A stretch of DNA of 60,878 nt, from the IMG/VR virus record IMGVR_UViG_3300023184_009656, positions 1 to 60,878 of that record; one strand, 5' to 3'. How positions within the stretch are numbered: the stretch's first letter is position 1; every line of letters begins with the position of its first letter. The position numbers were made by a program, and so were the translations under genes. Under the pieces are notes generated by a model that saw only the letters and a program-made list of their open reading frames with translations, did not search any database and was not told where the DNA came from. This DNA is from a virus (lineage: Duplodnaviria; Caudoviricetes). Of this stretch, positions 3,868-21,900 are shown one piece after another.

Positions 3868-4766
3868 TAGTCTTGCCATCAACTTCTTCTGGTTTTATAA
3901 GTAGCAATAAAGCTTTTCCTTATCTTCCTAGATCTATAAGAGAAAATAACTCTTTATATCCTAATAATGAATTTATAGTTTTACCTACTGAAGGTGAAGT
4001 AGCTAAATGGACAGAAAGAGCTCCAAATGGTTGGGGTCAATATTCACCATATTATAATGTATTTTTAAAATATTATTTAAAATCAGATGACAGCGCCGAA
4101 AGTATACCAGCTGGAGGAGGAAATATTCATTGTTTAAAAGCTGCAGGAATTGGCTCACGATTAGGTCTTGGAAGAGTAAGAAATATTACAAAAAATCCTA
4201 TAGGCACAACAAATCTTGCTAATGATTGGAGTTTGTATAATATATCATCTAGTTCTGTTTCAATTACTACTCAAACTTATGTTGATTTTGGATGTTTTTA
4301 TAGAGTAACTAGTAATGACCCAATGAGATCATTAAATTTTGGAGCAATTGCTATAAATTTTTCAAGAGTTACACCTGTTCCTTCTAATAGTTATTTAAAT
4401 TACTCAATAATACATGGTGGCGGAGTTAATCTTCTTGGAAATAATTCTACTTATACATATTTTAATACATATGATGAAGCTAAAACTTATGAAGCATATA
4501 ATCAATGGCTTGGGTCAGCATTTATTAAGTTTAAAAAACTTGACGAAATAAACCAAAGCTCAGTATTTAATCAATGGCAATTTTTAAGTTATAGGGTCAC
4601 AATTCCAACATTTGTAGATACTCCACAAGACGATGGAGCTACTGGTAAAGCTCAGATCTGTACCCTTAGACTATGCTTTTGTGAAAATAATAGTTATCTT
4701 GATGATGGTTCTGGCTTAAATACTGGGTCTATTCAATTTTTATATCCATTTTTGAATTTGAGCTAA
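3864..4766 (+). CDS. Hypothetical virion/fibre-associated protein (beta-rich, possibly carbohydrate-binding)
   Basis: 300-aa ORF with ATGA overlap to the fibre gene; aromatic/Asn/Ser-rich. Confidence 0.5.
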   Translation: MIVLPSTSSGFISSNKAFPYLPRSIRENNSLYPNNEFIVLPTEGEVAKWTERAPNGWGQYSPYYNVFLKYYLKSDDSAESIPAGGGNIHCLKAAGIGSRLGLGRVRNITKNPIGTTNLANDWSLYNISSSSVSITTQTYVDFGCFYRVTSNDPMRSLNFGAIAINFSRVTPVPSNSYLNYSIIHGGGVNLLGNNSTYTYFNTYDEAKTYEAYNQWLGSAFIKFKKLDEINQSSVFNQWQFLSYRVTIPTFVDTPQDDGATGKAQICTLRLCFCENNSYLDDGSGLNTGSIQFLYPFLNLS

Positions 4767-4782
4767 AAAATCATTATTATAT

Positions 4783-4789
4783 AGTGTAA
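4783..4789 (+). promoter_or_regulatory. Putative phage late promoter motif AGTGTAA
   Basis: Intergenic, 10 nt before ATG 4800; the same motif recurs before at least 6 other genes. Confidence 0.65.
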
Positions 4790-4799
4790 TATCTATTAT

Positions 4800-5324
4800 A
4801 TGACCACTAATAAAATTGTAGATATTGCAGATGAAATTTATCGCGAATTAGGCGAACCAACTGATCTTAGTCATGCTAGTATTGCTTTTTGGTTAAGAAC
4901 TAATATTGGCGATCTTAATCTTCTTATTAATAAAAGATTTTACATAAGTGAAGATACTTTTGAAGTAACTGTTCCAGAAGATCTTAATGATACTTTTGGA
5001 GATATTGAAAAAAGCGTATTTAAAATGATTTATAGTATTCATTATTATGAAAGACTTTTTAGAAATGCTCTTGGCGCAGCTAGCACAGATAGCACAATTG
5101 AAATAACAGAAAATGGATTTACTGGCAGAAAAGTTAATAAAAATGAATTAGCAAAAACTTATGCTCAATTAAGAAAGCAAATCAATGATGAGCTTCTTGT
5201 TCTTACTAAAAATTACAATCTTAATGAAGCTAAACCTATTCAAGTTGCTGGAGATGATATTTATCAAGATCCAACAAGACCTTATACTTATACTAGCTAT
5301 CTCAGAAGCATAGAGAATTCATAA
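4800..5324 (+). CDS. Putative head-tail adaptor/connector protein
   Basis: 174 aa, helical; first of four small genes upstream of the tail tube gene (synteny only). Confidence 0.45.
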   Translation: MTTNKIVDIADEIYRELGEPTDLSHASIAFWLRTNIGDLNLLINKRFYISEDTFEVTVPEDLNDTFGDIEKSVFKMIYSIHYYERLFRNALGAASTDSTIEITENGFTGRKVNKNELAKTYAQLRKQINDELLVLTKNYNLNEAKPIQVAGDDIYQDPTRPYTYTSYLRSIENS

Positions 5325-5325
5325 T

Positions 5326-5769
5326 ATGGCTTCATTTTTGTCAGCTGGTGATATTGCAGGATTTCAAAAAGATGTAAATACTCATTTTGATACATTTAAA
5401 AGATTATTAACAGTTCATAAAACACCAGTTAAAAAAATTACAGTTTCTATTCAAAATCCACAAGTTCTTGGATACGAAACTAATTCTGTAGAACAACAAT
5501 TTGAATACGAACAAAGGAGTTCAGATTTTTATGCAATTATATCATATGAAACAGAAAGAAGACCAGATATTATAGAGCAAATTCAAATTAAAACTAATAA
5601 TCCTCTTGTTTCTATTAAAGTTCAAAAAGATGCTAGAGATTACATCTTAAATGGCAAAACAGAAAAAATTGCTTTTGATGATAAAAGTTTTAATGTAGTA
5701 AGCACAGATATAGTTAAAAATTATCAAGGGCTAAAATATTATTTATTCTATTTAGAAGAAGCAAAATAA
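5326..5769 (+). CDS. Putative head-closure (stopper) protein
   Basis: 147 aa, beta-rich C-terminus (KIAFDDKSFNVVS...YYLFYLEE) typical of stopper proteins; position in neck module. Confidence 0.4.
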   Translation: MASFLSAGDIAGFQKDVNTHFDTFKRLLTVHKTPVKKITVSIQNPQVLGYETNSVEQQFEYEQRSSDFYAIISYETERRPDIIEQIQIKTNNPLVSIKVQKDARDYILNGKTEKIAFDDKSFNVVSTDIVKNYQGLKYYLFYLEEAK

Positions 5770-5770
5770 C

Positions 5771-6361
5771 ATGGGCAGCGTAGACTATACTTCTATTCGA
5801 GAGAAGATTAAAAATGTAAAAAAACTAGAAGTTTTGGCTGACAAAAAAGTTCAAGCTGGCGTAGAAGAAGCTAAAAGTAATTTCATAGAACAATTTGAAG
5901 AGCATCCAATTACCAAAGAAATTCAAGATGGCCCAGAAGCAAGTAATTCATCTGGAACATTAAATGGTCAAGGAAATCTTTTTAGTTTTATAGGTTTTGA
6001 AAGAGGATCTAATCCAATCGCGCCAGTTTCTAATTTCTTAAAAAATGCATTTCAAGTTAAAAAGTTAAAAACAGAAATTGGTAGATCAAAAATAGTTATA
6101 AATTATAAAGTATCATATCCAACACAAAAAGAATTAGATGGCTTAACTCCTATGCCTTGGGAACCTGGTAATAGTTGGTTAATTAATGTAGAAAAAGGTA
6201 TATCTGGTTTTAGTAATTATATTAGCAAAAAATTCTCTAAAGGTAGATCTGGAACAGGTGTTCAATCATCAGAAAATGTTAGATCTGCCAATTTCAAACC
6301 AACGAAATATATGTCAGATATAGTTAGTAATTTCTTAAAAAGTGTAAAGAAGATTAAGTGA
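5771..6361 (+). CDS. Putative neck / tail-completion protein
   Basis: 196-aa basic protein with GNLFSFIGF and MPWEPGNSW...EKGISG motifs; position in neck module. Confidence 0.4.
   Translation: MGSVDYTSIREKIKNVKKLEVLADKKVQAGVEEAKSNFIEQFEEHPITKEIQDGPEASNSSGTLNGQGNLFSFIGFERGSNPIAPVSNFLKNAFQVKKLKTEIGRSKIVINYKVSYPTQKELDGLTPMPWEPGNSWLINVEKGISGFSNYISKKFSKGRSGTGVQSSENVRSANFKPTKYMSDIVSNFLKSVKKIK
6341..6347 (+). promoter_or_regulatory. Putative late promoter motif AGTGTAA inside the 3' end of the upstream gene
   Basis: 10 nt before GTG 6358, the same spacing as at 4783. Confidence 0.55.
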
Positions 6362-7209
6362 AAATACAATTTGATAATTTAGTTACTTCTAGTATGATGC
6401 TATTTATTGATAATAAATTGTGTTCTAAAGGAGAAGCTTTTACTAATTATAGTGGTCAAATATATCCTATTGAAAGTAGTTATTACTCTTATAACACTTA
6501 CGCTTTACCATTTAGACAAATTATAGCAGATAGTTCAATTAGTGGCGCTAATATTATGTCTGGAGTTTATGTTAATAATACATTTACTCCTGTTAATACT
6601 AGTAATTTAGTAGGAATTAATCATTATAGAGGTCAAGCATATTTTAGTGGAGCTGCTGGTGGCAATTTAAGTGGCAGATACGCTGTAAAAGATTTTAATA
6701 TATATTTAACTAACAAACCAGAAGAAGAGATATTATTTGAAACTCAATACAAAATAAGGCCAAAAATAGCTCAAAGTTTAACTGGTTTAGCTGATAATGT
6801 TGAAACTATACCATCAATTTTCATCAAAAATAATGGCAGTATGAATCAGCCTTTTGCTTTTGGTGGCATTAAAAATTCAATGTTAGATATAAGAGTTATT
6901 GTTTTAGCTGATAATTTATATAATTTAGATGCTGTTTGTTCAATTTTAAGAGATACAGCCAATACTTTTGTATATACAATAGAATCTAGTGATTTAAAAC
7001 TAGATAATTTAGGTAATTTTACAAGTGGCTATTATAACTATAATAATATAGTAAGTAATAAGGTAAATAGCACAGATAAGCTTTATATTGAAGAAGTTAG
7101 GGTAAGTAAAGTCCCCAATGTAGGATTTAATAGCGTTAATTACAAAAACGTACTATACCCCGCTTTTATTGATTTTACTCTAAGAAAAGTTAGAGCAAAT
7201 TTGAATTAA
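6358..7209 (+). CDS. Putative tail terminator / tail completion protein
   Basis: 283 aa immediately before the tube gene; IPSIFI...PFAFGG...DIRVIVLAD...LDAVCSILRD pattern resembles the tail terminator fold. Confidence 0.45.
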   Translation: MKIQFDNLVTSSMMLFIDNKLCSKGEAFTNYSGQIYPIESSYYSYNTYALPFRQIIADSSISGANIMSGVYVNNTFTPVNTSNLVGINHYRGQAYFSGAAGGNLSGRYAVKDFNIYLTNKPEEEILFETQYKIRPKIAQSLTGLADNVETIPSIFIKNNGSMNQPFAFGGIKNSMLDIRVIVLADNLYNLDAVCSILRDTANTFVYTIESSDLKLDNLGNFTSGYYNYNNIVSNKVNSTDKLYIEEVRVSKVPNVGFNSVNYKNVLYPAFIDFTLRKVRANLN

Positions 7210-7231
7210 AAGTTCTCAAGTGAGATAATTT

Positions 7232-7238
7232 GATGTAA
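7232..7238 (+). promoter_or_regulatory. Variant late promoter motif (GATGTAA) with AGGAG Shine-Dalgarno at 7255-7259
   Basis: Intergenic, upstream of the tail tube gene. Confidence 0.4.
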
Positions 7239-7268
7239 TTTTAAATGAATTTATAGGAGAAAAAATAT

Positions 7269-8084
7269 ATGGGCAATGTAACATACTATCCAGCACAAAA
7301 ACTAACCGTAACAGGTACAGAACTTAATCTAGTTCAAAGCGCAGATGTCGATTTTAGTATTAGTCGTCAAGATATTTTTGAATTCGGCAATCTTTACGCA
7401 ATTGATAACATTCAAGTAGAACCGCCAACCGCTACTTTAAATTTTTCTTACATTCTAGCTACTGGAATTAATAATCACATTCTATTAGGTTTAAACAACC
7501 TAGACGTTTTACTCGCTGATGTAACTGGCAAACAATATGTGTTAAGCGGTGCTGGAGCACTTACAATTCCAAGTGGAGTTATTACTTCTTATGCAGTAGA
7601 AGGCTCAGTAGGAAATGTTCCAACAGTTACCGTGAGTGTTCAAGCTCTCGATGCAACGTATACTGCTGGTCTCCCAACTTATCCAGCGGGTAGCATTAAT
7701 GATATTAATGTTATTCGCCCAGATCAAATTAGTGTTAGTCTCGCTGGAACAAACTACGAATGTAGATCTTTCTCATTCACATTAGATATTCCACGCGAAT
7801 ATGTTAATAAGTTAGGGCAATTAACTCCTATTGCTAATATTTTAACTGGCCCACCAAAGGTTACAGTAGAAGCAGAAATTATTCTAAGAGATAGCGCAAA
7901 TCCAAAATTCGCAAATGATGCTTCCAATAACGTAAACATTGTTTGCGGTTCACTAAATTTTGCGGTTTCTGGAGCCAAACTAGCTAACTTTACTTCTAAT
8001 ACAACTCTAGACGATATTCAAATCGCCTCAGTAACATTAGAAGCACCAGTTAAATCAAATTCTCAAATCACAATCTCTGCTTAA
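7269..8084 (+). CDS. Major tail tube protein with two tandem tube domains
   Basis: Strong RBS; VQSADVDFSISRQDIFEFG...EPPTATLNFSY is repeated as CRSFSFTLDIPREYVNKLG...GPPKVTVEAEI; lies between neck genes and TMP. Confidence 0.7.
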   Translation: MGNVTYYPAQKLTVTGTELNLVQSADVDFSISRQDIFEFGNLYAIDNIQVEPPTATLNFSYILATGINNHILLGLNNLDVLLADVTGKQYVLSGAGALTIPSGVITSYAVEGSVGNVPTVTVSVQALDATYTAGLPTYPAGSINDINVIRPDQISVSLAGTNYECRSFSFTLDIPREYVNKLGQLTPIANILTGPPKVTVEAEIILRDSANPKFANDASNNVNIVCGSLNFAVSGAKLANFTSNTTLDDIQIASVTLEAPVKSNSQITISA

Positions 8085-8090
8085 GGTTTC

Positions 8091-8140
8091 AATATTATTA
8101 TAATAAACTAGACTTTCCGTTTGGTTTATTATATAATATT
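8091..8140 (+). terminator. Long AT-rich hairpin after the tube gene (terminator or mRNA-stabilising stem)
   Basis: AATATTATTATAATAAACTAGAC-TTTCC-GTTTGGTTTATTATATAATATT: ~22-bp stem with 2 G:U pairs and a 1-nt bulge, followed by TT. Confidence 0.5.
8109..8137 (+). promoter_or_regulatory. sigma70-type promoter TAGACT-N17-TATAAT
   Basis: -35 at 8109-8114, -10 at 8132-8137; AGGTAAAAGG RBS at 8145-8154. Confidence 0.6.
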
Positions 8141-8157
8141 TTAAAGGTAAAAGGTGT

Positions 8158-8373
8158 ATGTCAAAGGAACAAGACTATCTATCATTTCAAGTTAGAAGAA
8201 AAGTTACTTCTTTATTCAAGAATTATTTTATAATCTTAGAAGATCTCGTTAGAGAAAATCCTTCTATTTCACAAGAAAAATATAATCAAATCCGTAAAAG
8301 GATTTTAGATTATAGTAATGATACAATTAGAGAAATTGAGCAAGATATTGAACAATTCAAAATTTCTTTATGA
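8158..8373 (+). CDS. Hypothetical small helical protein
   Basis: 71 aa, own promoter and RBS; YNQIRKRILDYSNDTIREI. Confidence 0.6.
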   Translation: MSKEQDYLSFQVRRKVTSLFKNYFIILEDLVRENPSISQEKYNQIRKRILDYSNDTIREIEQDIEQFKISL

Positions 8374-8630
8374 AAAAAATATCATTCAATTTTCCAGCCC
8401 AAAGTATAATTGAGGCTAATTTAAATTTACAATCTATACAAAGAGCTCTTTCTCAAGAATATAAAATCTATAGCCCAAAGCTAGAAACATTAATTAGTGA
8501 TAAATTTATATCCATATACAAAACATGGGATATTAAAAGAAAAGAAGATTTCGTCAGAACAATTGCTGGTAAACTTAACTTTAAGAAAGTTAAATCTTTT
8601 TTTGATGAAAAAACAGGAGAACAAATATGA
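8370..8630 (+). CDS. Hypothetical protein
   Basis: 86 aa, ATGA overlaps on both sides. Confidence 0.55.
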   Translation: MKKISFNFPAQSIIEANLNLQSIQRALSQEYKIYSPKLETLISDKFISIYKTWDIKRKEDFVRTIAGKLNFKKVKSFFDEKTGEQI

Positions 8631-9388
8631 TACCACTTAAATTTTTATACAAATTCAAAGCTATTGAAACAATTGAAAAAGAACAAATCGAAGAGTCAAA
8701 AAATGACCAAGGCGAAGTAGTTAAAACTATTAAAACAGTCAAAGAAGAGAATCCTGTAGAATTCGCAGTTAGAAAACCTAACAGAGTTCTTTTTGATGAT
8801 GCAGAACTTTTCTATGGCGTAAAATTGGCTGAAGCAATTAAAGCTGGTATGTTAACTAAAACATTAATGATTAAAAAGTATGAAAAAGATGGCGGTATTT
8901 TTACTGAAAATGAATTAGAAAGAATTAAAAATATACTTGAATCTCTAGGTGAAACTCAAGCTAAATTAGATATTCTAGATCCAAAAGAAGAAACTAAAGA
9001 ATTATCAGAAGAAGAGAAAAAAGAAAAAGATAACCTTGAAGCTATGCTTAAATCTTTAAGATTAGAATTAATGGAAGTTGAGAATAATAAGAATAATATA
9101 TTTGAACAAACTGCTGAAAATAGAGCTAAGAACAAAATGTTAATGTGGTGGATTTTACAATTATGTTATAGGAAAGAGGGTGAAATATACTCTCCTCTTT
9201 TTGGTGAAGGTTCTTACGAACAAAGGATAGCAAAGTATGATGAATTAGAAGAAGGTGATGATAAATTCTTAAAGAAAGTACTTACTAAGTTCGCATATTT
9301 TGTTAGTTTTTGGTATGCTGGTAAAGCTAATACAGAAGAAGAATTTAAAAATGTAGAAGATTTTGTTGATAAGGAAAATGAATCTTGA
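8627..9388 (+). CDS. Putative tail assembly chaperone
   Basis: 253 aa, acidic and coiled-coil, between tube and TMP; FAVRKPNR motif. Confidence 0.45.
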   Translation: MIPLKFLYKFKAIETIEKEQIEESKNDQGEVVKTIKTVKEENPVEFAVRKPNRVLFDDAELFYGVKLAEAIKAGMLTKTLMIKKYEKDGGIFTENELERIKNILESLGETQAKLDILDPKEETKELSEEEKKEKDNLEAMLKSLRLELMEVENNKNNIFEQTAENRAKNKMLMWWILQLCYRKEGEIYSPLFGEGSYEQRIAKYDELEEGDDKFLKKVLTKFAYFVSFWYAGKANTEEEFKNVEDFVDKENES

Positions 9389-10377
9389 TAGATCTAACAG
9401 AAAAGAAATTAAAACTTTTATTCTTTGAAATTTGTAATGGCTATTCTAAACTTTTAGATAAAGATAATAAAACATACATATACATAAAACATTTTGGCGA
9501 GTTTACTTCTGGTGAGTTTGAGGAGTATTTTTTTGAGCAATATGAAATAGCCAAGAAAAAAGGTTTGCCCACGTTAGCAGAAAAAGAAAAATTTCTAATA
9601 GATCAAGATTATTGGACTAAAACTCAAAATGAAGAGTTAAAATATAAGCAAGAAAAATTACAAAAACTAGAAAAAAGCTATGCGGACTTATTCTTAAAGT
9701 CTCATATGGATAAGGCTAAAAAAGAAATAACTGAATTACGTAAAAATGTTAAAGCCTTAGAAGATGAAAAGAAAGACTTATTAGGTATGCATGCTGAAAC
9801 ATATGCTGAAAATAAGCTAGAATATTTTTATATTTTAAATTCATTTTATAAAGATAAAGAGTTAAAAGAGAAATTATTTGATTTTTACAACGAAGATGTA
9901 GATAGCGATTCTTATTATCAATATATTGTTTTACATAATAAAATTATCGAAAAATTCAATATTAATCATATTAAAGCTTTGGGTTTATCTAATTCATTTC
10001 AAAATATAATTAACGTATCAGATGAAAATTGTTACTATCTATTTGGAAAACCAATATATCATTTAACTTATTACCAAAATAGTATATTCACTTATGGCAA
10101 GTACTTTTCTAATATATTATCTATGCAAGAGGCTAAAAAATTAGATACAGCAACCAAAACTAATGCAGATAAGTTATTAGAATGGTATAATGCCCTTGTT
10201 AATTTTAAGTCTAAAAACCCTAATAGTTCTGGTAAAGGCATGAGTTTCGTTATGGGCGCAAACAAAGAAGACATGGAATATCTAAAGCAAGATGTGAAAA
10301 ACGATATGAATGATATAGCAAAAGCTCAAGGTGGAAAATTAGGTATACAAGAACTAGCGAAATTATCTAAAATATAA
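9385..10377 (+). CDS. Putative tail assembly chaperone 2 / hypothetical coiled-coil protein
   Basis: 330 aa, TTG start overlapping the upstream TGA; directly upstream of TMP. Confidence 0.4.
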   Translation: MIDLTEKKLKLLFFEICNGYSKLLDKDNKTYIYIKHFGEFTSGEFEEYFFEQYEIAKKKGLPTLAEKEKFLIDQDYWTKTQNEELKYKQEKLQKLEKSYADLFLKSHMDKAKKEITELRKNVKALEDEKKDLLGMHAETYAENKLEYFYILNSFYKDKELKEKLFDFYNEDVDSDSYYQYIVLHNKIIEKFNINHIKALGLSNSFQNIINVSDENCYYLFGKPIYHLTYYQNSIFTYGKYFSNILSMQEAKKLDTATKTNADKLLEWYNALVNFKSKNPNSSGKGMSFVMGANKEDMEYLKQDVKNDMNDIAKAQGGKLGIQELAKLSKI

Positions 10378-10384
10378 AAATATA

Positions 10385-10410
10385 AGTGTAATAATATCAT
10401 AGGAAAAAGG
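10385..10410 (+). promoter_or_regulatory. Late promoter AGTGTAA (10385-10391) plus tandem AGG-N4-AGG RBS (10401-10410)
   Basis: Intergenic, upstream of TMP ATG 10418. Confidence 0.65.
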
Positions 10411-10417
10411 TTAATCT

Positions 10418-13400
10418 ATGAGTGATATTATTATTTCGGTGGATGGAGATACAAGGCCGTTAGAGGCTAAGTTAGGCAAGATATCCGCCAGAACAGTAAA
10501 TTTAAATCTAAAGGATAGCTTATCACAGCCTTTAGGTAGAATTACTGGTAAAGTATCAGAATTCCAGAAATCATTAGAAGCATCTAATGCTCGTGTTTTA
10601 GCCTTCGGCGCATCAGCAGGAGCTATATATACTGTTCAAAAAGCTTTTTCTGAAATAGTAAAATCAACCATAGAAGTTGAAAAAAGTTTAGCGGATATTA
10701 ATGTAGTTTTAAATGCATCCAGTAAAGATCTTGGAAAATTTGGTAGTAGTTTATTTGGTATAGCAAAAAGTACTGGACAAAGTTTCGATCAAGTATCAAA
10801 AGCTGCAACAGAATTTGCTCGTCAAGGTTTAGGAGTAGCTGAAACATTAAAAAGAACAAGTGATGCTTTGATATTAAGTCGTCTTTCTGGATTAGATGCA
10901 GCAAGAAGTGTAGAAACTTTAACTGCAGCAGTAAATTCGTTTGCTCGTGCTGGATTAACTTCTACTCAAATCATTAACAAATTAGCAAATGTTGATGCAA
11001 GTTTTGCTGTTAGTACTGGTGATTTAGCAGAAGCTATTAGTCGAGTTGGTAGTACTGCTCAAGACGTTGGAGTAGATTTGGATCAATTAATTGCACTTGT
11101 TACTTCTGCTCAACAAACAACTGCTAGAGGTGGAGCAGTAATTGGTAACTCATTTAAAACTATTTTCACTAGAATTCAAAGAGCAGATACTCTTGATGCA
11201 TTAGAAGGTGTTGGTGTTGCTGTTAGAGATTTACAAGGCAATGTTTTACCAGCAATGCAAGTGTTAGATAATTTAGCAAAAACATTTGGAAAATTAACTC
11301 AAGCTCAACAAGCTTCAATTGCAGAAGATGTTGGTGGCGTATTCCAAATTAATATTTTGCGAGCAGCACTAGCAGACTTAGGAAAAGAATATAATGTTTA
11401 TAATAGTGCTTTAGGAGTTTCAAGAACTGCAACAGATCAAGCTATCAAAAGAAATGAAGCACTAAATCAAACTCTTTCAGCTCTAACAAATAAAACTTTC
11501 GTTAATTTAAAAGAAGCTGCAGCTAAAGTTGGTGAAATAACAATAGCTCCAACAATTAAAGGTGGGCTAGGTGGACTTAATGTTTTATTAGAAGAATTTA
11601 ATAAACCACAAGAGAGTCAAGGTATTGGAACACAAATCGCGACAGGAATTTTATCTGGTATAGGAAATTATATAAGTGGTCCAGGATTAGCAGTTGTTGG
11701 TGCAGCTTTTATTAAAATTTTTGGTGGATTGACTAAGTTTAGTGCTGAAGCATTAAAGAGTTTAATTGGAATTAGCAGTCAAGCAGATAAAATCGCAGCA
11801 GCTCAAGAAAGAGTTAACACTATTCTTGCTCAAAATCCAAGTTTAATTCAAGCTATTATTTCAAAAGAAAGCTCTTTGCTTCAAATAGAAAATCAAATAT
11901 TAAAAATTATACAATCTCAAAATGCAGCAAGAGCAGTTGGTGCAAGTATTTCTGCTAGAGTTGCTCCAGCAGCCGCAGCATTACCAATTCCAACGGTAAA
12001 AACAAAAACAAAAGCTGGTGGACATATTCCTAATTTCTCAGCTGCAGCAGCGCAAGAAATTATGGGAGCATATGCTGGAGGATATACTCCAGGAGCAGTT
12101 AAAAAAACCAATGGAATGTATTATAATACAGCAGAATCTGTTGTTCAATTTCCTGGAGCTAGCGGTCCAGCAATAATTCCTCCAGAAAATAGTGATGCAG
12201 GAAAAAATTATAAAAAACAATTTCAACGTTCTGCTGGATTTGATCCTTATGCGTCAAATGGATTCATTCCTAATTTTGCTAAAACATTAACAGAAAGTTA
12301 TCCAGAAAAAGGTTCTGCATCCAAACAAGTCTCAATGATTTATGCTAAAAAAGCTGGTATTGGGTTAGGAACTGGTGTTGCAAAATATGGAGATTATAAT
12401 GTTCCAATTAGTTTTAATACAGCTGGATTTTCTGCAAGTAAAGTTAGAAAACCTGAAGATGTTAATTTAGAAAAACAATTAGGAGATTATTTAGTTAAAT
12501 TTACAAATCAATTTGCTCAAAGAATTTTTGCTGGAGGATCTGGCGGAGGAGCAGCTAAAATTGGAGGGATAAGTGAATTATCAAATAGAGGTTCATTTGG
12601 TAGTATAGTTGGAACAGTATTTGAAACAGCAGTAGATTTAGCAGCAGGAAAATTAAATGAAGGTAGAGCACAAAATGCTCCTATTGATTTTGCAAGTCCA
12701 AATGGATTATTAAGAAAAATGTTTGGTGGTGCTCCAGGCCAATACGAAGCTAAAGTTAATAACAATCCAGATCAATTAAATAGCGTTGCTCAAAAAATTC
12801 TAAATACAGGTTTAATTTCTCCTCAATTAAAAAATTTATTAGGAATAAATACTAAACCAGAAGGAAAAAGAAGAGCTAAACAAAAACCCGCAAGATATCA
12901 AAAGAAAGCATCAGTTGGATTTATACCTAATTTTTCAGCTCTTCAAGAAGCGATAGGTAGAGAGCAAGCTGCTGGTATTTCTTCTAGTCAAATTAGAGTT
13001 GGAGCTGATTCAACTTTAATGAATAAAAATAATCCTTTTGGTCTAGGAGTTTACAATACAAAAGATGAACCAGCAGGATTAAAGCAAGGAATAAATAGGT
13101 CAAGAGGAAATATACCAAATTTTGCTATGCCAGTTGCAACTCCTGGAGCAGGAAGTATACCTGTTCCAGAAATGAAAAAACTTAAAGAAACTACTATAAA
13201 TTTGTCAGAAAAAATGGTTGTTAGTCAAGGCAGATTAATGGCTTTGAGTTTTGGTCTTTCTACAGCTCAAGGCATTATAACTCAATTTGGTTCAGAAACA
13301 AATAAAGTAACAAAAGGATTATCTCAAAGTTTGGGAATAATGAGTACAGTAGCTTCTGGATTTTCTGTTGGAGGGAAAAAATACGGAGGAGCAATTGCAG

Positions 13401-15682
13401 GAACCATGGTAGCTGCTCAAGGAGTTGCTGGATTGTCCGAATCAGCCAACAAACCATATACAACACAAATAGATAGTTTAAATAAAAGTTTAGATGAGAT
13501 GAAAAATAAATCTGGACAATTAGAATCAACAATTAGTTCTTTAACTCCAACTATTAATGAATATGTTGCAGAATTAGATAAAAGTGAACCAGATCCAGCA
13601 AAAATATCAGACTTTAAAAAAGCAATATTAGAAGGCATAGCTCCACTTGGAAAAGAAATGCAAGATAAGATTATGAAAAATTTATCTTCTCCAAAAGAAG
13701 TTCAAGCCGCTTTAAGCAAAGAACAAAGAGGAGGAGCAATCGAACAGTCTCAAAAAGAACTAACGAGAGATATTTATCAAAAACAATTAAATTCAAGAAA
13801 ACAAATGGGATTTCAAGGCCAAGTTGGTCAAATATTATCTGCAGTTCCAGGTTTAGGTGGAGTTGGCAAGCGTATGATAGAAGGTCAAGGAACTCAAGAT
13901 GTATTAGGAAATAAACAAGATATAGAAGGAATGGCTGGAAATTTATTAGCTCCATTAGCTCAAACTCCAGAAGGATTAGCTTCTCTTGCTGAAAATTTAT
14001 CAAATGTCTCTACTAACACAAATGATGTTATTGCTGTATTAAAAATGATGTATGAAAGTGCTGGAGTTAGTACTGAATCTATTAATGCTTTAAATGGCGC
14101 ACTTGCTCAAAGTCCAAAATCAGCAAATGAACTTACTCAAGCTTTATTTAAAACATTAGAAGCAGAAATTAAAAGAACAAAAGCTATAAAAGAACAAGGC
14201 GCTGGTCAAGGTGGAGGTATTGTAAAAAATTACGCAGGAGCAGAAAATATTGTTACAAAAGAAAGTGTTCAAGGAGGAAAAGAAACAAGCTTAAAAGCCA
14301 GATTAGCAGAGATGACTGCTATAACTACTCGCGCAAAAAAAATTGGTCCAGCAGCTCAAGTTTTCCAAGATCTAGGTTCATCTAATCTTATAGATCTTAT
14401 GAGTCAAAGTGGAGTATCTCTTGATACGTTAAAACAAACAAATCCAGAATTAGTAAAAATGGGAGAACAAGGATACGTTAATAAAGCTAAAGAAAATTTT
14501 GCTGCTCAAAGAGAAGCTATTGTTGCAACTGGTGGAGATGTTGGAAAATTTGATGAAATGATGAAAAAATTAAATCTTGAAGATCTTGGTAAAGCTGCAT
14601 TTGAAAAATCTTATACTGGAAAAGATTTACCAGATTATACTAAAATGGGAACATTTTTTCAAGAACAAAGCGCAGCGCAAAAAGAAAATACAGCTGCTGT
14701 TCAAGCTTTAACAGCAGCTCAACAACAAGCAGCTGCAGGATCAGCAAATGCAAAAAATGCTACGTTCGATCAAGGCCAGGCATCTAGAATGGGAACTGAA
14801 GTTCCAGGAACTCAACCAGATTGGGTGAATACATTATTAACTACTTTAGGAGCAGGTGGAGGCGTAGTTAGTAGTGCTCTTGGAGGAGCTCTTGGAGGTG
14901 GAGTAGCTAATGTATCAACAAAAGCTGTTGGAGGTGCACTTAATGTAGGAAAAAATGTTGTTGGAGGTGCAGTTAATGTAGGAAAAAATGTTGTTGGAGG
15001 TATAGGAGGAGGATTTGGAGCTGCCAGAGGAGTATTAAATACAGCAGCTGCAGCAAATGGAATGAATATAGGAGTAGGAGAGGCATTAGCGTTACCTGGA
15101 GGAGCTCTAACAACAGCTGCTTTAGGTGTTGGTGCATTTGCTGGTGGCGCAGCTCTTGGTTATGGAGCTGGAGAACTTGTTGATCCTGGAGCAGAAAAAC
15201 GTACAGCTATGCTTGAATCAATTCCTGGAGTCAAAACTGGGTTTAAATCATTATCTTCTGTTTTACCTAGTTTTCTTGGCGGTGGAGGAGCTGAAGGACC
15301 TAGCCAAGAAGATGAAGCTAAAACAACTGAAATGTTCAATCGAGCTAAAGAAAAACAAAAACAAAGACTACAAAGACAACAAGCCGTCTCAGAAGCACCA
15401 ACCGTAGAAGTTCCAGAAAACCAACTTAAAGAAGTGCAAAAAACAGCTAGCACAGAAAAAGCTCAACAGAATCAGATTACTAACACAATTTCTGTATCAC
15501 CAACAATAAGTATTGCTCAACAAGCAGCAGCAAATGATAAGGCGGATCTGCAAAAAATGATAGAAGCAGAAGTAAAGAAATTTGGTGAAGGGTTATTAAA
15601 AATTGTAGAAGAAAAATCTAAAAACACGGCAAAAGGAACTGTCACTCCACCTCAATCAATGAGGGCTCAGATGGCAGCATAA
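10418..15682 (+). CDS. Tail tape measure protein (TP901-type core) with internal G-x-IPNF-delimited domains
   Basis: 1754 aa, Ala/Gly/Gln-rich. N-terminal core motifs (EFARQGL...ALILSRLSGLDAA...DLAEAISRVGS...RGGAVIGNSFKTIFTRI), hydrophobic TM-like segments, Gly-rich C-terminus. Confidence 0.9.
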   Translation: MSDIIISVDGDTRPLEAKLGKISARTVNLNLKDSLSQPLGRITGKVSEFQKSLEASNARVLAFGASAGAIYTVQKAFSEIVKSTIEVEKSLADINVVLNASSKDLGKFGSSLFGIAKSTGQSFDQVSKAATEFARQGLGVAETLKRTSDALILSRLSGLDAARSVETLTAAVNSFARAGLTSTQIINKLANVDASFAVSTGDLAEAISRVGSTAQDVGVDLDQLIALVTSAQQTTARGGAVIGNSFKTIFTRIQRADTLDALEGVGVAVRDLQGNVLPAMQVLDNLAKTFGKLTQAQQASIAEDVGGVFQINILRAALADLGKEYNVYNSALGVSRTATDQAIKRNEALNQTLSALTNKTFVNLKEAAAKVGEITIAPTIKGGLGGLNVLLEEFNKPQESQGIGTQIATGILSGIGNYISGPGLAVVGAAFIKIFGGLTKFSAEALKSLIGISSQADKIAAAQERVNTILAQNPSLIQAIISKESSLLQIENQILKIIQSQNAARAVGASISARVAPAAAALPIPTVKTKTKAGGHIPNFSAAAAQEIMGAYAGGYTPGAVKKTNGMYYNTAESVVQFPGASGPAIIPPENSDAGKNYKKQFQRSAGFDPYASNGFIPNFAKTLTESYPEKGSASKQVSMIYAKKAGIGLGTGVAKYGDYNVPISFNTAGFSASKVRKPEDVNLEKQLGDYLVKFTNQFAQRIFAGGSGGGAAKIGGISELSNRGSFGSIVGTVFETAVDLAAGKLNEGRAQNAPIDFASPNGLLRKMFGGAPGQYEAKVNNNPDQLNSVAQKILNTGLISPQLKNLLGINTKPEGKRRAKQKPARYQKKASVGFIPNFSALQEAIGREQAAGISSSQIRVGADSTLMNKNNPFGLGVYNTKDEPAGLKQGINRSRGNIPNFAMPVATPGAGSIPVPEMKKLKETTINLSEKMVVSQGRLMALSFGLSTAQGIITQFGSETNKVTKGLSQSLGIMSTVASGFSVGGKKYGGAIAGTMVAAQGVAGLSESANKPYTTQIDSLNKSLDEMKNKSGQLESTISSLTPTINEYVAELDKSEPDPAKISDFKKAILEGIAPLGKEMQDKIMKNLSSPKEVQAALSKEQRGGAIEQSQKELTRDIYQKQLNSRKQMGFQGQVGQILSAVPGLGGVGKRMIEGQGTQDVLGNKQDIEGMAGNLLAPLAQTPEGLASLAENLSNVSTNTNDVIAVLKMMYESAGVSTESINALNGALAQSPKSANELTQALFKTLEAEIKRTKAIKEQGAGQGGGIVKNYAGAENIVTKESVQGGKETSLKARLAEMTAITTRAKKIGPAAQVFQDLGSSNLIDLMSQSGVSLDTLKQTNPELVKMGEQGYVNKAKENFAAQREAIVATGGDVGKFDEMMKKLNLEDLGKAAFEKSYTGKDLPDYTKMGTFFQEQSAAQKENTAAVQALTAAQQQAAAGSANAKNATFDQGQASRMGTEVPGTQPDWVNTLLTTLGAGGGVVSSALGGALGGGVANVSTKAVGGALNVGKNVVGGAVNVGKNVVGGIGGGFGAARGVLNTAAAANGMNIGVGEALALPGGALTTAALGVGAFAGGAALGYGAGELVDPGAEKRTAMLESIPGVKTGFKSLSSVLPSFLGGGGAEGPSQEDEAKTTEMFNRAKEKQKQRLQRQQAVSEAPTVEVPENQLKEVQKTASTEKAQQNQITNTISVSPTISIAQQAAANDKADLQKMIEAEVKKFGEGLLKIVEEKSKNTAKGTVTPPQSMRAQMAA
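12020..13123 (+). repeat. Four dispersed G-x-IPNF-(S/A) peptide repeats in the TMP
   Basis: GHIPNFS 12020, GFIPNFA 12260, GFIPNFS 12917, GNIPNFA 13106 (residues 535, 615, 834, 897). Confidence 0.9.
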
Positions 15683-15685
15683 AAT

Positions 15686-17371
15686 ATGGCAAATCCAGTA
15701 TTTAATATAAATTTACAATATCCACAAATTACTAGCGCGACAAAAAAGATCGAAAAAAATCAAGCTAATTTTTTATTAAGAATTATCCAAGAGATTACTG
15801 TAAAAGGAAAACTATTAAAATTTAATAATCTAAGTGGTTATTCTGAAATATGGGCTCAAATTGATGCTATTCAAGATAATAAATCAGCTAAAAATTGTAC
15901 TCTTAATTTTGCAAATTTAGTATCTTATAGTGGAGTTAAAATAACTAGTATTAGTTTTGATCAAACAAATAATCAAGATGTTCAAAGTAAAGATTTTTCT
16001 ATAACTTTTGAAGTATACGAAGCAGTAAGCTCTTCTGGTTTAACTCAATATGGAGTTACTACAACTCAATTAAAAGATTTAGAAGATATTAAAATAACTC
16101 AAGTTAAAGATCAAAATTTAGAAGGAGAAACTTTAACAACTTCAGTTGGAATAACATTTACCCCTAATGCAAATACTTTTAATGAAAGTATAGCGAATAC
16201 TATTGCTAAAGCTGTATTAGCTGCAACAAATATACTCTCATTAACATCATCAAGAACAACAGTTTCAAATGTTTACGATGAAAAAACTGCAACGTATACA
16301 TATATAGAAGTAAAGAACAAATTTAGAGGAAGTGGTGGTGGATTTGCAATTTTAAGATCTAATAATTATAATATTCAAAATAACGGATCAATTCTTGTGA
16401 CAGATAATACTCAAATTAAAATAGAAAGCAATACTTATACAATTAACGAACTATATTCTAGAGCTTTATCTGAAGCTAGTGGAGCATTAGGTAGATGTCA
16501 ACAATTTCTTAACATTTATTATTCATTTAGTTATGGAACTCCTCCAGCTGGATATAGAAACACTTTCTTACTTTTCAATAAGCAAATAACAGTAGATGAA
16601 GCTTCTGGTACTGCTCAAGCTAGTGCTTCTATAACTAATGAACCAGAATATACTGGTAATGTTAAAGTAGAAATTGTAAGCACAATAGAAGATCTTAAAA
16701 AAGAAGATTCAAAAAGAAAAACAGTTAGGGGGACTATAACTGGCATAAATAATCCACCAGATAAAGAAATCAATCCCACATCTAATAAAAAATTAGCAGC
16801 TGCAAAAAATTATTTTGATAGTAATTATAAACCTAAATTTATAAGCGCAAAAAATTTTATTGATGCAAAAGGTGAAATAACTGGAGCTAAGTATAAAGCT
16901 TATATTACAAATGGAGATGTTTCGTATAATATTAGTGAAGGATCTATTAATTTTAGTTTAACTTACGAAAGCAGACCAAATTTTGATGTTTCTGAAAGCA
17001 CTATGATTTATGGTTCTGCAGAATTAACAAATCAATCTGCAGTTCATTTAGCAAATCAATTTATTATAATTGGCGGACAAACTCCAGGAGAAGAATTAAT
17101 TCAAGAAAGTAATCAATCTAGACCAATAGAACAAACATTAAAAGTCCAAGCTTTATTTAAAAAACCTGCAGATATTAAAAATTATATATCAAAATTTAAA
17201 GATCTTATTAGTCAGAACTACAATGATGGAATCATTAAATCAATAAATATTTCAGCAGAATTAATAAATAGAACATTTCAAGGTAGTGCAACTTGGTTAA
17301 AATTTGGGGATTATAGAGAAAGAAGTAATATTAGCCTTAAAGTTACAACACCAAAACAGGTAAAAGTCTAA
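15686..17371 (+). CDS. Putative distal tail / tail-tip hub protein
   Basis: 561 aa, beta-rich, first gene after TMP; repeated ITSISF...FSITFEVY-like strands. Confidence 0.45.
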   Translation: MANPVFNINLQYPQITSATKKIEKNQANFLLRIIQEITVKGKLLKFNNLSGYSEIWAQIDAIQDNKSAKNCTLNFANLVSYSGVKITSISFDQTNNQDVQSKDFSITFEVYEAVSSSGLTQYGVTTTQLKDLEDIKITQVKDQNLEGETLTTSVGITFTPNANTFNESIANTIAKAVLAATNILSLTSSRTTVSNVYDEKTATYTYIEVKNKFRGSGGGFAILRSNNYNIQNNGSILVTDNTQIKIESNTYTINELYSRALSEASGALGRCQQFLNIYYSFSYGTPPAGYRNTFLLFNKQITVDEASGTAQASASITNEPEYTGNVKVEIVSTIEDLKKEDSKRKTVRGTITGINNPPDKEINPTSNKKLAAAKNYFDSNYKPKFISAKNFIDAKGEITGAKYKAYITNGDVSYNISEGSINFSLTYESRPNFDVSESTMIYGSAELTNQSAVHLANQFIIIGGQTPGEELIQESNQSRPIEQTLKVQALFKKPADIKNYISKFKDLISQNYNDGIIKSINISAELINRTFQGSATWLKFGDYRERSNISLKVTTPKQVKV

Positions 17372-18906
17372 TGAGTAATATATCTTTATCTTCTCTTTAT
17401 CCAAATTTTTTAGAAGGTTCAAGTTTAACTGATAAAAAAATTACAGCTTTTGCTACTAAAAGAATAGAACCAGTATTTAATGGACCAATTCAATATGCAA
17501 ATAAAGTAATCTTTACAATAGAAGGAGAATATCTTCCTCAAGGAGTTGGGGGAAATATACCCAATCAAGCAGTAATTGGAATTAAAACATTTTTAGATAC
17601 TTTTTCTGTATTGAATAATGGAAATTGTACTCTTTCAAATATTACTTTAAATGAAGCTAATTGGGTTGGTCATGTTCCATATACTGTAGAATGTGAATGT
17701 TATAGTTTTATGGATGATAATATAAATAAAACTATTGATGCAAAAAATGAAATTAGCATTACTGAAAACCTAGATGGTACAATAAGTATAAATAGAAGCA
17801 TTAATGTAAGCGCTATATCTATAAATGGTTCTAGCGCTGTAAATGATGCAAGAACTTTTGCTTCACTTTTAAGTGGACAAGTAGGTAGCTGGAAATTAAA
17901 TTATTCTACAAGTAATAAAGCTGGAAGTTTGAATAGTATAGTTTTAAATAGTGATTCACAAACTGCGGATATTAGTAATGGAGGTTATAGTATTCAACAA
18001 AATTTTACAGCAAATTTATTACCAAGAGATATATCAAAAAAAGGTATAGTAAAACATTCTGCAGAATTTCAATCTAGTATAGATGGATTAGCCACAGTCA
18101 ATGTAAAATCTAATGTAATTGGTGGAATAAATACAACTGAAAATGATTTAAAGGCTTTAATAAAATCTAACCCATTTTCTACTCCAGCTGGTTTTAAAGT
18201 TATATCTAATACAGCAAGTTACGATGATGTTCAAAAGTCAATGGAAATAAATACTACTTTTTCTAACGATTTGACAATCACTACAAATGGAAATAAAGTT
18301 AGTAATTCATTAAGTTTTAATTTTGATTTTTTTACACAAAATACAAATGCTACTTTTAATTCAGAATCAAGACCAGCAACCGTTGTAAAAAACTCTAATT
18401 CAACGGCATCAGATTTATCAAAAAATATTTCTCAACAAATAAAAACTTATAATCCTCTTGGAGAAGATCTTATATTAGAAACAACTAGCGATGGAGATGG
18501 GGTAGTAACTCAAGTTTCAACTTATTCTGAAAATTATATAAGATCTTCAAATATTATAGCAAATGGCAATAATATTCAATATACAGATGTAAATGTTAAT
18601 GTTGATTATCAAGCCGCATTTCCACAAAATAGTTTCGCACCACTTTTAAGTGGAAAAGGAAATTATTACTTAGAAAATTTAGATTATATTAATAATTCAA
18701 TTATTAATACTTCTGTTCAAGGAAAATATATCTCAACAGCACCACAAACAAGCTTTTTTAAAGATTTCGACAAGAGTGGAGATTTAGTAGCTTTAACTAA
18801 AACTTTACTATTAAAAGATGAAATGGGGCTTGATACTCAAAATAGATCATTCTCTTATGTTATACAAAAAGTTGGAAACGATAAAACTTTTGAAAGCTTA
18901 AAATGA
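17371..18906 (+). CDS. Putative tail-tip protein, apparent paralog of the upstream gene
   Basis: 511 aa; similar pattern (FTIEG...LSNITLNE...YTVECECY; ENLDGTISIN vs IQNNGSILVT). Confidence 0.45.
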   Translation: MSNISLSSLYPNFLEGSSLTDKKITAFATKRIEPVFNGPIQYANKVIFTIEGEYLPQGVGGNIPNQAVIGIKTFLDTFSVLNNGNCTLSNITLNEANWVGHVPYTVECECYSFMDDNINKTIDAKNEISITENLDGTISINRSINVSAISINGSSAVNDARTFASLLSGQVGSWKLNYSTSNKAGSLNSIVLNSDSQTADISNGGYSIQQNFTANLLPRDISKKGIVKHSAEFQSSIDGLATVNVKSNVIGGINTTENDLKALIKSNPFSTPAGFKVISNTASYDDVQKSMEINTTFSNDLTITTNGNKVSNSLSFNFDFFTQNTNATFNSESRPATVVKNSNSTASDLSKNISQQIKTYNPLGEDLILETTSDGDGVVTQVSTYSENYIRSSNIIANGNNIQYTDVNVNVDYQAAFPQNSFAPLLSGKGNYYLENLDYINNSIINTSVQGKYISTAPQTSFFKDFDKSGDLVALTKTLLLKDEMGLDTQNRSFSYVIQKVGNDKTFESLK

Positions 18907-21900
18907 AAAATAGTACAAAATATTTTTTAAATAATCTAAGTGTTGATTCTGAGAATTATATACTTCATTATTTCTTTGATACTGGAAATTTTAGTGGCAA
19001 TAACTATATTTATAATAATACTGAATATACAGATTATACTGGCACTTATGTTGGATCAAATTTAAATACTAATTTAAATAAAAAAACTGGATATCTGTTT
19101 TTTGATACAACTAATAGAATTGATATACCTTTAAAAAATTTAAATATTAATTCTTATACATTTATCATTAGTTATGAAAAAACTGGATCTGGACCATGTG
19201 TTTTATTTTCTAATTTGAATACTGGAATTAGTGGTCAATATTATGGATTTAATATTTGCGTTAATGATTATAACAATTTACTTATAGAGTATTATGATAC
19301 TAATAAGAATTTAAAATATCTTTCACCAACTTATAATCTTGATACAAAAGGAATTGTTTGTTTTAGAGGATATGAAAATAATATTTTCGTTAATTATTAT
19401 AATGCAGCTTATGATGATTTTTATACAGAAGCTTTCGAAATTGATAACAATTCGACTCCTAATGTAACTGGTTCGATAGTTTTAGGTAGCGGTAGATTTT
19501 CTAATTTTCCAAATTATAGCGGATATATAAAAGACTTTATATTAATTGATGATAATATAACAAATTTTCAACTCAACAATGTGTTAGATCAGTTTGCATT
19601 TAATTTAAATTATTATTATACGTTCCAAAGAAACAATGAATTTTATGGATATGAAAACTATCCAGACAATGTTACTCATGTTTTTGATAGTTATGCTGAT
19701 GTAACTGGTTGTTTTAATAATACATTTTTAGATAATACTGGAGTAATTTATGGCAGTATAACAGGAAGTAATTATAGTTTAGATCTTACTGGAAATAGTG
19801 GCGTTGCTACTAATTTAGATCGTTCTCTATTTTTATCATTAAAAAATAAAATTAAAAAAACTCAAATATTTGGAATAACCACGTTGGGTGCCAAAACATC
19901 AATCGTTCTATTAAATGATGGCACAATAACTGGTTGGGGAACTAACAATTTAGGACAAGTATATGGAGTTCCACTTTATGTTGGAGATTGGACTGGTTCA
20001 CCTGTTGGAAAATTAACAGATATTCAAGATATTTCATGTGATACATATAGTTGTTTAGCTCTTAAAAATGATGGAACGGTTACTGGTTGGGGGTCTAATT
20101 ATAATGGAGGAATTTATGCAACTATTATAGATAATGATCCATTGTCTAATATATTTACTGGAGATTATAATAATACTCCGCTTGGTCAATTAACAGATAT
20201 CAGTGGAATTAGTATGGGTACTTATTTTTCTGTTTTTTTAAAAAATGATGGTACAGTACTAAGTTGGGGATCAAATAATCAAGGGCAAGTTGCTGGCATA
20301 AATGATAGAATTTTACCATATCCTCTTAAAATACAAATTACTGGAATATATAATGATTGGAGCTATCTTTCTGGATTAACTTTAAACTATACTGGACAAT
20401 ATAACTCTAAACCAGCATATAAATATACCAATGATCTTGAAAATTTTGGTCTTTCCTTATATAACGATACAACTGGATGGGTTTTAAACTATAGTAGTTT
20501 ATCTGATGTTATTAAAATTACTGGAAATACAAGCTTGCCAACAAACAACAATTTAAACCTTCCATATCAAGTAGTAATTGAGGATAGTCAAGATACAGGA
20601 GCAAATGGTTTATATACTTATAATATTGCTTATGCATTTTATGAAAAGAATGGAGACGTAACTAGAGTAATAAATTTTGAATCAGATCCTAATGACAATT
20701 ATTGGGCTGTTGTTTCTGGTGGAAATAACCTTTATATTAATAGTGGTATTGGATCGTCTAGTTTATTTCCTTTAACTGGCTGGAGTGGGAATAATGAATT
20801 AGGTTACTATGGCGATATTACTATAAAACCAAAATATGTTCAATTAGATTATGTATATAATACTGATTCTAATAATAGATTTACTGGAGTTTTTGAAGAA
20901 ACTATAGTTGGGCAATTAACAGGAATAAAAAAAATATCAGCAGGTGCCTTTCATGTTTATGCATTGAAAAATGATAATACTATTACTGGTTGGGGAAACA
21001 ATCAATATTATCAAATTGATCCTTACAACGCATCTACTATGTGGACTGGGAATTGGAATAATAACAAATTAAATTTATTAACTGGCGTATCAGATATTGT
21101 AGCTGGTTCAACCGCTGGATTAGTATTATTTGATAATAATAAAATAAGTGGTTGGGGAGGTATCGGAGCTATTGGACTAAGTGGAAACTATTTAACTGGA
21201 GTAAAACAAATAGGCGGAGGCTTTGCATTTTTAAATGCTTTATTGCAAAATGAAGTATTAACGGGATGGGGAACAAATACAGGAGCTTATCCAAAAATAG
21301 CTAGCGGAGTTAAACAATACAATAGTTCTCAACACGGAACATATTACGAAAACATTACTGGCCAACAAGTTAAAAATCTAGTCTCTGGTAATGCTTATTT
21401 TGTTTATAACATAGAAGTAGAAAGACCAACTATAATAACAGAAACTATAACAACAATAGTTAGTCAAATCTCTGGTTTTGAAAATCAAGTATTATTCTCT
21501 GGAGTAACTGGATATAATACTGGTTGGTATAAAGATATTCCAGATTTTTGTGGAACAGGATTTCCGCTTTATCTTATTTCTGGAATTATTGGGGTTATTA
21601 CTGGCGATGTATTAACTGGTATTGATATTACAACATCAACATCTACTTCTCAAAAATTAGTATTAAGTAATACAACTTATCAAACTGGTTCTTCTTCTGG
21701 AATTTATAACGCATCAAAAACTGGAAATTATATTTATGAATTTAATTATACTAACAACGGATCTAGCATTGATGGATTAGAAACATTATACTTAGATTCT
21801 GGTTATCATACCTTGCAATCTAAAAATATACTTGATCCAGATAACTCTTTAATTGCTATAAAAAATAGCAACTTACAATATACTAAAAATTATTTTTTAA

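Follow-up and report, generated by a model that had tools for sequence, protein, structure and literature searches.

The tape measure protein (TMP) of a phage is generally regarded as a helical ruler that in some cases has a single wall-degrading domain. In the excerpted text of PMC12617516, just the T5 and lambda TMPs are given as known to be cleaved, with the lambda site and the cleavage catalyst stated to be unknown, and the excerpted text of PMC10038345 places the cut of the T5 protein pb2 after R1127, between a hydrophobic stretch and a domain with a metallopeptidase motif. TMP-embedded enzymes, TMP cleavage, polyvalent virion proteins and TMP-derived effectors are already known; our literature search found no publication in which each module boundary of a phage TMP has the same fixed fence peptide and cassettes move from fence to fence. 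Here we study the TMP gene of the IMG/VR record IMGVR_UViG_3300023184_009656 (60.9 kb, provirus class, roughly 40% complete), whose 60,878 nucleotides together form the window. The middle of this TMP (aa 535-902) is predicted to be a string of three separately folding modules, m1, m2 and m3, and not a helical ruler, and each of the three is fenced by a short peptide, G-x-IPNF, that lies in predicted flexible linkers. Comparison of sequences shows that whole modules are added, moved or replaced at the fence in related phages. The best explanation as a whole, to which we give a probability of about 0.5, is that of fenced modules, cleavage at the fences and an m2 that acts as an enzyme.

The gene is one open reading frame (ORF) of 5265 nt, translated into a protein of 1754 aa (P0001). 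It matches PF10145 over aa 117-307 (E 1.1e-27, 97.7 bits against a cut-off of 33.2) and TIGR01760 over aa 72-400 (E 9.6e-38, 130.1 bits against a cut-off of 28.8), and 11 of the 13 PHROG families that match it are annotated as tail length tape measure protein; by these profiles the gene product is a TP901-type TMP. A sequence-only reading made before this analysis had reported four G-x-IPNF motifs, at G535, G615, G834 and G897, with spacings of 80, 219 and 63 aa and with basic residues ahead of three of them. The translation reproduces each of these statements, with the motifs starting at nt 12020, 12260, 12917 and 13106, the I of IPNF at aa 537, 617, 836 and 899, and the sites reading, in order, KTKAGGHIPNFS, ASNGFIPNFA, KKASVGFIPNFS and RSRGNIPNFA. 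From the composition of the TMP itself 0.006 occurrences of IPNF are expected, against the four observed; this excess and the retention of the sites across relatives rule out chance or low complexity as the origin of the motif. The other window ORFs of at least 100 aa contain no match to the looser pattern G-x-[IVLM]-P-[NRK]-[FY] except one GTIPNY (56153-56170, minus strand), which stands just upstream of, or at the start of, a minus-strand ORF and is probably there by chance.

To place the motifs in a structural frame we use an AlphaFold2 model of aa 527-910, built on a 57-sequence alignment (mean pLDDT 69), in which m1, m2 and m3 appear as folded blocks and all four motifs fall in segments of pLDDT below 50 between predicted folded domains. 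The modules differ in how fast they evolve: mean pairwise identity is 61% for m1, the most conserved, 47% for m3, which is intermediate, and 22% for m2, the fastest evolving. The two small modules have YNT-x-E in common (YNT at aa 569 and 879), as had been noticed from the sequence. That they are homologous duplicates is not supported, as hhalign aligns only 9 columns around YNT-x-E, with a probability of 0.35% and an E of 0.17. In relatives with many modules they form constant bookends, m1 heading the array (L085, L086 and L088) and m3 closing it (L085 and L086). Searches with the region model, by Foldseek against the PDB and by VIA-align wide, returned nothing above noise.

How widely is this arrangement found? 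With TMP aa 520-910 as the query and 8000 candidates scored, at least 935 proteins reach E<=1e-3, each as long as a TMP, and IMG/VR holds at least 539 confirmed relatives out of 599 pattern matches. Of the 121 relatives listed, 120 have four or more [IVL]PN[FYL] sites, spaced in the same way (about 80, 217-291 and 63-75 aa), and the single exception, P0019, is a truncated record with three sites. In an alignment of 57 distinct regions, the G, P and N are invariant (57/57) at each of the four sites, and the other positions are F/Y/H, I/V and F/Y, for a consensus of G-[FYH]-[IV]-P-N-[FY]. The 228 sites are encoded by 94 distinct 18-mers that include all four Gly and all four Pro codons. Since the codons vary while the residues stay constant, it is the peptide, not the DNA, that is under selection, and a DNA-level repeat or recombination signal is ruled out as the main constraint; at the level of these alignments, the fence peptide is under strong protein-level selection. 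In more distant relatives, Arg or Lys replaces Asn (IPRF, MPKF or LPRY instead of IPNF).

Now we consider what lies between the fences in relatives. We collected 438 TMP sequences (416 after deduplication) and tallied, with a profile for each module, the 293 that have at least two motif-delimited modules; a tally with a full-length hidden Markov model (HMM) was set aside because it missed known modules, such as m1 and m2 of P0078. Plain m1-m2-m3 is found in 189 of the 293, partial arrays or arrays with divergent small modules in 81, and 23 have one or more modules of at least 100 aa that go unrecognised by the m1, m2 and m3 profiles. Two close relatives show how such a module comes in: P0015 and P0013 share 98.9% identity across aa 1-619 and 87% beyond, and P0015 has an extra 111 aa that start at one fence and end at the next, exactly motif to motif. 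Nearly unchanged, the same cassette is found at the m1/m2 junction of P0015 and of the much more distant TMP P0096, and at the m2/m3 junction of L049. The suggestion of the sequence-only reading that the motifs are cassette boundaries thus gains support at the family level, from a motif-to-motif insertion and from one cassette at different junctions. Its companion, that cargo is swapped between phages, holds for the family (the 23 TMPs with extra modules) and is not seen in the window, which has the common m1-m2-m3 content.

The 111-aa cassette has a ParB_N match below threshold (E 0.0056, 17.1 bits against a cut-off of 26.3), and we note it as a mobile ParB-like module seen at different fence junctions of three otherwise divergent TMPs. 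The longest array, in P0078 (2234 aa), has 11 fences, and a GNAT domain lies exactly inside one of its modules (PF00583, cut-off 20.7 bits; E 1.2e-05, 26 bits). A module of P0251 matches the same family more weakly (E 0.0018, with 19 bits, below that cut-off). Eight fences each are found in P0251, L085 (3911-9916) and L086 (3860-14557), and several in L088, L093 and L094. The modules of TMPs with 8-11 fences are mostly unannotatable, and GNAT-like modules recur in P0078, P0251 and L085. By eye only, one module of P0078 has an HExxH string and another a DWDGT string; Pfam gives no peptidase family match at E<=0.01 for the P0078 modules. In L094 (about 3968-11190) the TMP is split into several fence-bearing ORFs, for which assembly frameshifts are likelier than a truly split gene. 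The m2 core is undetectable by profile in L085, L086 and L088. It was tempting to conclude that m2 is replaced by unrelated domains in most relatives, as phmmer from the window m2 reached 11 of 78 mid-size modules, but iterated profiles reached 195 of 212 and we rejected that view. On this profile evidence m2 is one fast-evolving family and the usual cargo of the array, with true replacements or additions a minority.

What does the fence peptide do? Around R1127 the T5 record reads NSFVPR/AEGG (the slash marks the cut), and pb2 (1219 aa) has a single match to the pattern [FYH][IVLM]P[NRK], against 0.034 expected, and this match ends exactly at R1127. In the window TMP F-[VI]-P-[R/N] likewise stands in a linker beside a folded domain. 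We compared five T5-family TMPs (six were gathered and that of Aeromonas phage TS3 was left out): F-x-P-R-A-[EN]-G-G is kept in 4 of the 5 readable ones, a Klebsiella phage having GFIPRAEGG and one Vibrio phage YGRASGG. Across Demerecviridae TMPs (L110, which is T5 pb2, L111, L112 and L115) this peptide is seen down to about 40% identity, and a conserved block, GE[HN]G-x-E-[LV]-[VI]-TP, follows the cleavage-site peptide. The same peptide at every boundary, the disordered linkers, the strict protein-level selection and the match to the mapped T5 site make a repeated maturation cleavage site the most economical reading. By analogy with T5, G-x-IPNF would be cut after Asn, a proposal whose chances we put a little short of even. 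The fence would then be a maturation site of the same kind as F-V-P-R/A of pb2; once the tail is assembled, cutting would split the TMP into a rod from the N-terminal part, the free modules and a membrane-active C-terminal body, and these modules would exit the tail together with the DNA or before it.

Several observations weigh against this reading. The pattern was chosen after both sequences had been seen, and the match spans only 4 to 8 residues. The hhalign register that sets site 4 (QGINRSRGNIPN) against KGIGNANSFVPR is not significant (12 columns, E 0.042, probability 1.3%), homology between the window TMP and pb2 was not found (best blastp E 0.44, and no reportable match of the module HMMs), and the residue after the cut is Ala in T5, not an aromatic. 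No protease was found in the window, which holds some 40% of the genome, by PHROGs on 10 proteins or by Pfam on 20. There is no cultured relative: TMP aa 520-921 matches 0 of 50,697 deposited phage genomes at E<=1e-5. Finally, 189 of the 293 TMPs keep the same three modules, and 'cargo exchange' is therefore a property of the family that is not seen in the window itself.

The main rival to cleavage is that the motifs stay uncut and serve as docking peptides or hinges that engage, for instance, the TMP trimer, the tube lumen or the tail assembly chaperone, in which case the insert would remain one beads-on-a-string chain whose modules swap there for no other reason than that a linker can tolerate recombination. 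The motifs are short and linear and lie in disordered linkers, as binding motifs would no less than cleavage sites; that no protease was found in the window scans, and that m1 and m3 are constant bookends, also speaks for it. One peptide at every boundary, in arrays with up to 11 modules, is the pattern of polyprotein cleavage sites, and the core of the motif agrees with the only TMP cleavage site that has been mapped, that of T5. Three folded 213-aa domains per trimer would, moreover, be hard to fit in register inside the tail tube. We regard the uncut alternative as unlikely, if one to be taken seriously, and we keep cleavage at the fences as the preferred reading.

We turn to the module that, in this reading, would be set free. 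The sequence-only reading had described m2 as a globular domain resembling the PD-(D/E)xK nucleases. Predicted alone (65 sequences), m2 gives a confident AlphaFold2 model, with a pLDDT of 84.8 and a pTM of 0.75. It starts with three long strands and two long helices, of which the second has E736; D757 follows in a loop, and after a short helix come a short E777-x-K779 strand and a K793-bearing helix. The named residues stand where they had been placed, in GTVFE from 732 (E736), PIDF from 755 (D757) and YEAK from 776 (E777 and K779). Among 174 distinct m2 sequences, G732, F735, E736 and K779 are present in all, K793 in 173 and D757 in 162 (93%), and position 777 is D in 100 and E in 74; as far as these sequences go, m2 keeps only one Gly, one Phe, three acidic residues and two lysines. 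The 294 m2 modules have a median pI of 9.8, with a pI above 9 in 99%. Run against 1.84 billion proteins, the m2 profile finds 365 cluster representatives, and in the 150 listed almost every copy of the domain lies in a protein of TMP length, near aa 600-900; those few short matches that we inspected end in frameshift-like sequence. From this placement, m2 is apparently confined to this TMP family. A complex prediction with three m2 copies scored 0.01 and 0.03 against a mark of 0.42, which speaks neither for nor against self-association.

Searches for relatives of m2 outside the family gave little. Its model has nothing above noise in the PDB by Foldseek, by VIA-align wide or in a second look with VIA-align, or in BFVD, where the best match is a GTPase at E 2.4e-02; profiles against PDB sequences return only lectin and P16 rows at E>=0.06, and Pfam at E<=10 across 57 members shows no recurring family. 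What stands of the nuclease claim is the linear E...D...(D/E)xK order and its conservation; no Pfam, PDB-sequence or fold search ties m2 to PD-(D/E)xK, and the nuclease reading is therefore unproven. This want of any fold, profile or PDB-sequence relative in the searches made counts against our view of m2 as well, as does a feature of the model, in which D757 is in a loop with a single beta-bridge and does not begin a hairpin strand. The strand order of the model differs from the canonical PD-(D/E)xK order. With the residue order on one side and the strand order and empty fold searches on the other, we consider it quite doubtful that m2 is a true PD-(D/E)xK (restriction-endonuclease-fold) nuclease, injected against host DNA or host defences. 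The set of conserved residues suits a metal-dependent phosphoesterase, and its linear order agrees with the PD-(D/E)xK signature. Judged on its conserved residues, m2 is probably an enzyme of some kind; we infer a metal-dependent enzyme acting on a polyanion, with a nuclease or other phosphoesterase as the leading guess.

A conserved Glu/Asp and a basic pI also suit lysozyme-like enzymes, and m2 might instead act on the cell envelope, for example as a peptidoglycan hydrolase, like the TMP-embedded enzymes of T5 pb2 and some other phages. Two invariant lysines are atypical of wall-degrading enzymes, and m2 matches no lysozyme, transglycosylase or peptidase family or fold. In favour of this reading, Pfam found no wall-degrading domain in the 20 other window proteins scanned, and several phage TMPs harbour a peptidoglycan hydrolase according to the excerpted texts of PMC12617516 and PMC10038345; an envelope enzyme is nonetheless improbable.

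Taken to its full extent, the preferred reading of fenced modules, cleavage and an enzymatic m2 would make the TMP gene a polyprotein gene. A protease that reads G-F-I-P-N/F would cut the assembled TMP at every fence, and changeable free basic enzymes (m2 here; GNAT, ParB-like and other modules in relatives) would be stacked in the tail lumen and shot into the host ahead of the DNA. This extended picture is possible and on the unlikely side.

The surroundings of the gene are those expected of a tail-module TMP, in the order tube, two small ORFs, TMP and large distal tail proteins. The ten tail-module proteins around the TMP (window 4800-10377 and 15686-18906) have no PHROG match, Pfam on eleven tail-module proteins gives matches only for the tube protein and BppL_N, and Pfam on 20 other window proteins gives only tube, BppL_N, RCC1, FG-GAP and one weak DUF match. 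The phage clade is very poorly represented in current family libraries. Large distal tail proteins with RCC1 repeats (PF13540, 4 stretches) and FG-GAP repeats (PF14312, E 8.9e-77) are seen at window 18903-22607 and 27823-30006, and a 5'-open ORF at 1-3867 has a BppL_N match. We tried to read the host from genome-collection contigs; the 13 loci found all lie in metagenome-assembled genomes with mixed phylum labels, and no host is therefore assigned. The features are collected in Table 1.

Table 1. Features of the tape measure gene and its surroundings (nucleotide positions in the window unless another record is named)
Feature	Position	Strand	Basis or remark
Tail tube protein gene	7269-8084	+	PF18906 Phage_tube_2, E 2.6e-08, 34.2 bits against a cut-off of 27
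Tape measure protein gene	10418-15682	+	PF10145, TIGR01760, PHROG TMP families
TP901-type TMP core, aa 72-400	10631-11617	+	TIGR01760 aa 72-400; PF10145 aa 117-307
Motif site 1, GHIPNF, aa 535-540	12020-12037	+	G/P/N invariant 57/57; pLDDT<50
Module m1, aa 541-614, predicted small alpha/beta domain with YNTAE	12038-12259	+	Region model
Motif site 2, GFIPNF, aa 615-620	12260-12277	+	G/P/N invariant 57/57; pLDDT<50
Module m2, aa 621-833, basic (pI 10.0), fast-evolving, enzyme-like predicted alpha/beta domain	12278-12916	+	AlphaFold2
Conserved charged set of m2	12623-12796	+	E736 12623-12625, D757 12686-12688, E777 12746-12748, K779 12752-12754, K793 12794-12796
Motif site 3, GFIPNF, aa 834-839	12917-12934	+	G/P/N invariant 57/57; pLDDT<50
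Module m3, aa 840-896, predicted small helix/strand domain with YNTKDEP	12935-13105	+	Region model
Motif site 4, GNIPNF, aa 897-902	13106-13123	+	G/P/N invariant 57/57; hhalign register with T5 pb2 site, not significant
C-terminal TMP body, Gly-rich hydrophobic stretches at about 14834-14893 and 15068-15172	13124-15682	+	Translation, hydropathy scan
111-aa cassette of relatives	P0015 aa 613-723; P0096 aa 625-735; L049:8780-9112		DGNHR string

What makes the locus worth following is that a fixed fence peptide stands at each module boundary in a clade of uncultured, aquatic-type phages that is very large (no fewer than 935 proteins and 539 viral contigs). The coincidence of the fence core with the T5 site yields a testable recognition motif for TMP maturation. 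The arrangement suggests that the tail lumen may carry exchangeable, ready-made proteins, which would bear on phage counter-defence and on engineered tails for protein delivery. With a well-predicted fold that has no structural relative and a strict, catalytic-looking residue set, m2 is a good target for structural work and enzymology. Were the polyprotein picture true, long-tailed phages would have cassette-based effector delivery built into the ruler, by the same recognition logic as F-V-P-R/A of T5 pb2, and the fence peptide would be a general handle on TMP cleavage.

Several systems already described resemble this TMP in part. With the PD-(D/E)xK superfamily m2 has in common its basic charge and the conserved E...D...(D/E)xK residues with their order, and it differs in lacking a fold or profile match to that superfamily and in its non-canonical predicted strand order. 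TP901-1-type TMPs (PF10145, TIGR01760) share the N-terminal core, which scores well above the cut-offs, and the tail gene order, whereas the motif-fenced three-module insert of the window TMP has no Pfam, PHROG or NCBIfam model. A TMP-derived platform whose exchangeable domains are packaged in a tail-like tube is also described for contractile injection systems of actinobacteria, in the Sle1-type effectors (Nagakubo et al., 2026, PMC13277306; see also PMC11126660). Compared by description, these effectors differ in that the variable domain is C-terminal and the systems are contractile, and the abstract of PMC13277306 mentions no fencing peptide. Polyvalent proteins (Iyer et al., 2017, PMC5512222), as the excerpted text presents them, are also large virion-delivered strings of unrelated enzymatic domains that are thought to be separated by proteolysis, and the GNAT and ParB-like modules of the window TMP's relatives recall that repertoire. 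The window TMP itself has one enzyme-like module, and its relatives add GNAT and the sub-threshold ParB_N and GNAT matches. The agent of processing proposed for polyvalent proteins is an embedded metallopeptidase domain and not a repeated linker peptide, and tape measure proteins go unmentioned in the excerpted text (PMC5512222); the window TMP has no embedded peptidase match by Pfam. A further parallel is T5 pb2, with its products pb2* and pb2C (Linares et al., 2023, PMC10038345, in the excerpted text). It differs from the window TMP in having one site, near the C-terminus and before a domain with a metallopeptidase motif, instead of four in mid-protein, in having Ala after the cut where the window family has Phe or Tyr, and in showing no sequence homology beyond the motif. 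What the two have in common is a cut, here only proposed, in a linker adjoining a folded domain that is not part of the ruler, and a site core, F-[VI]-P-[R/N], found in both.

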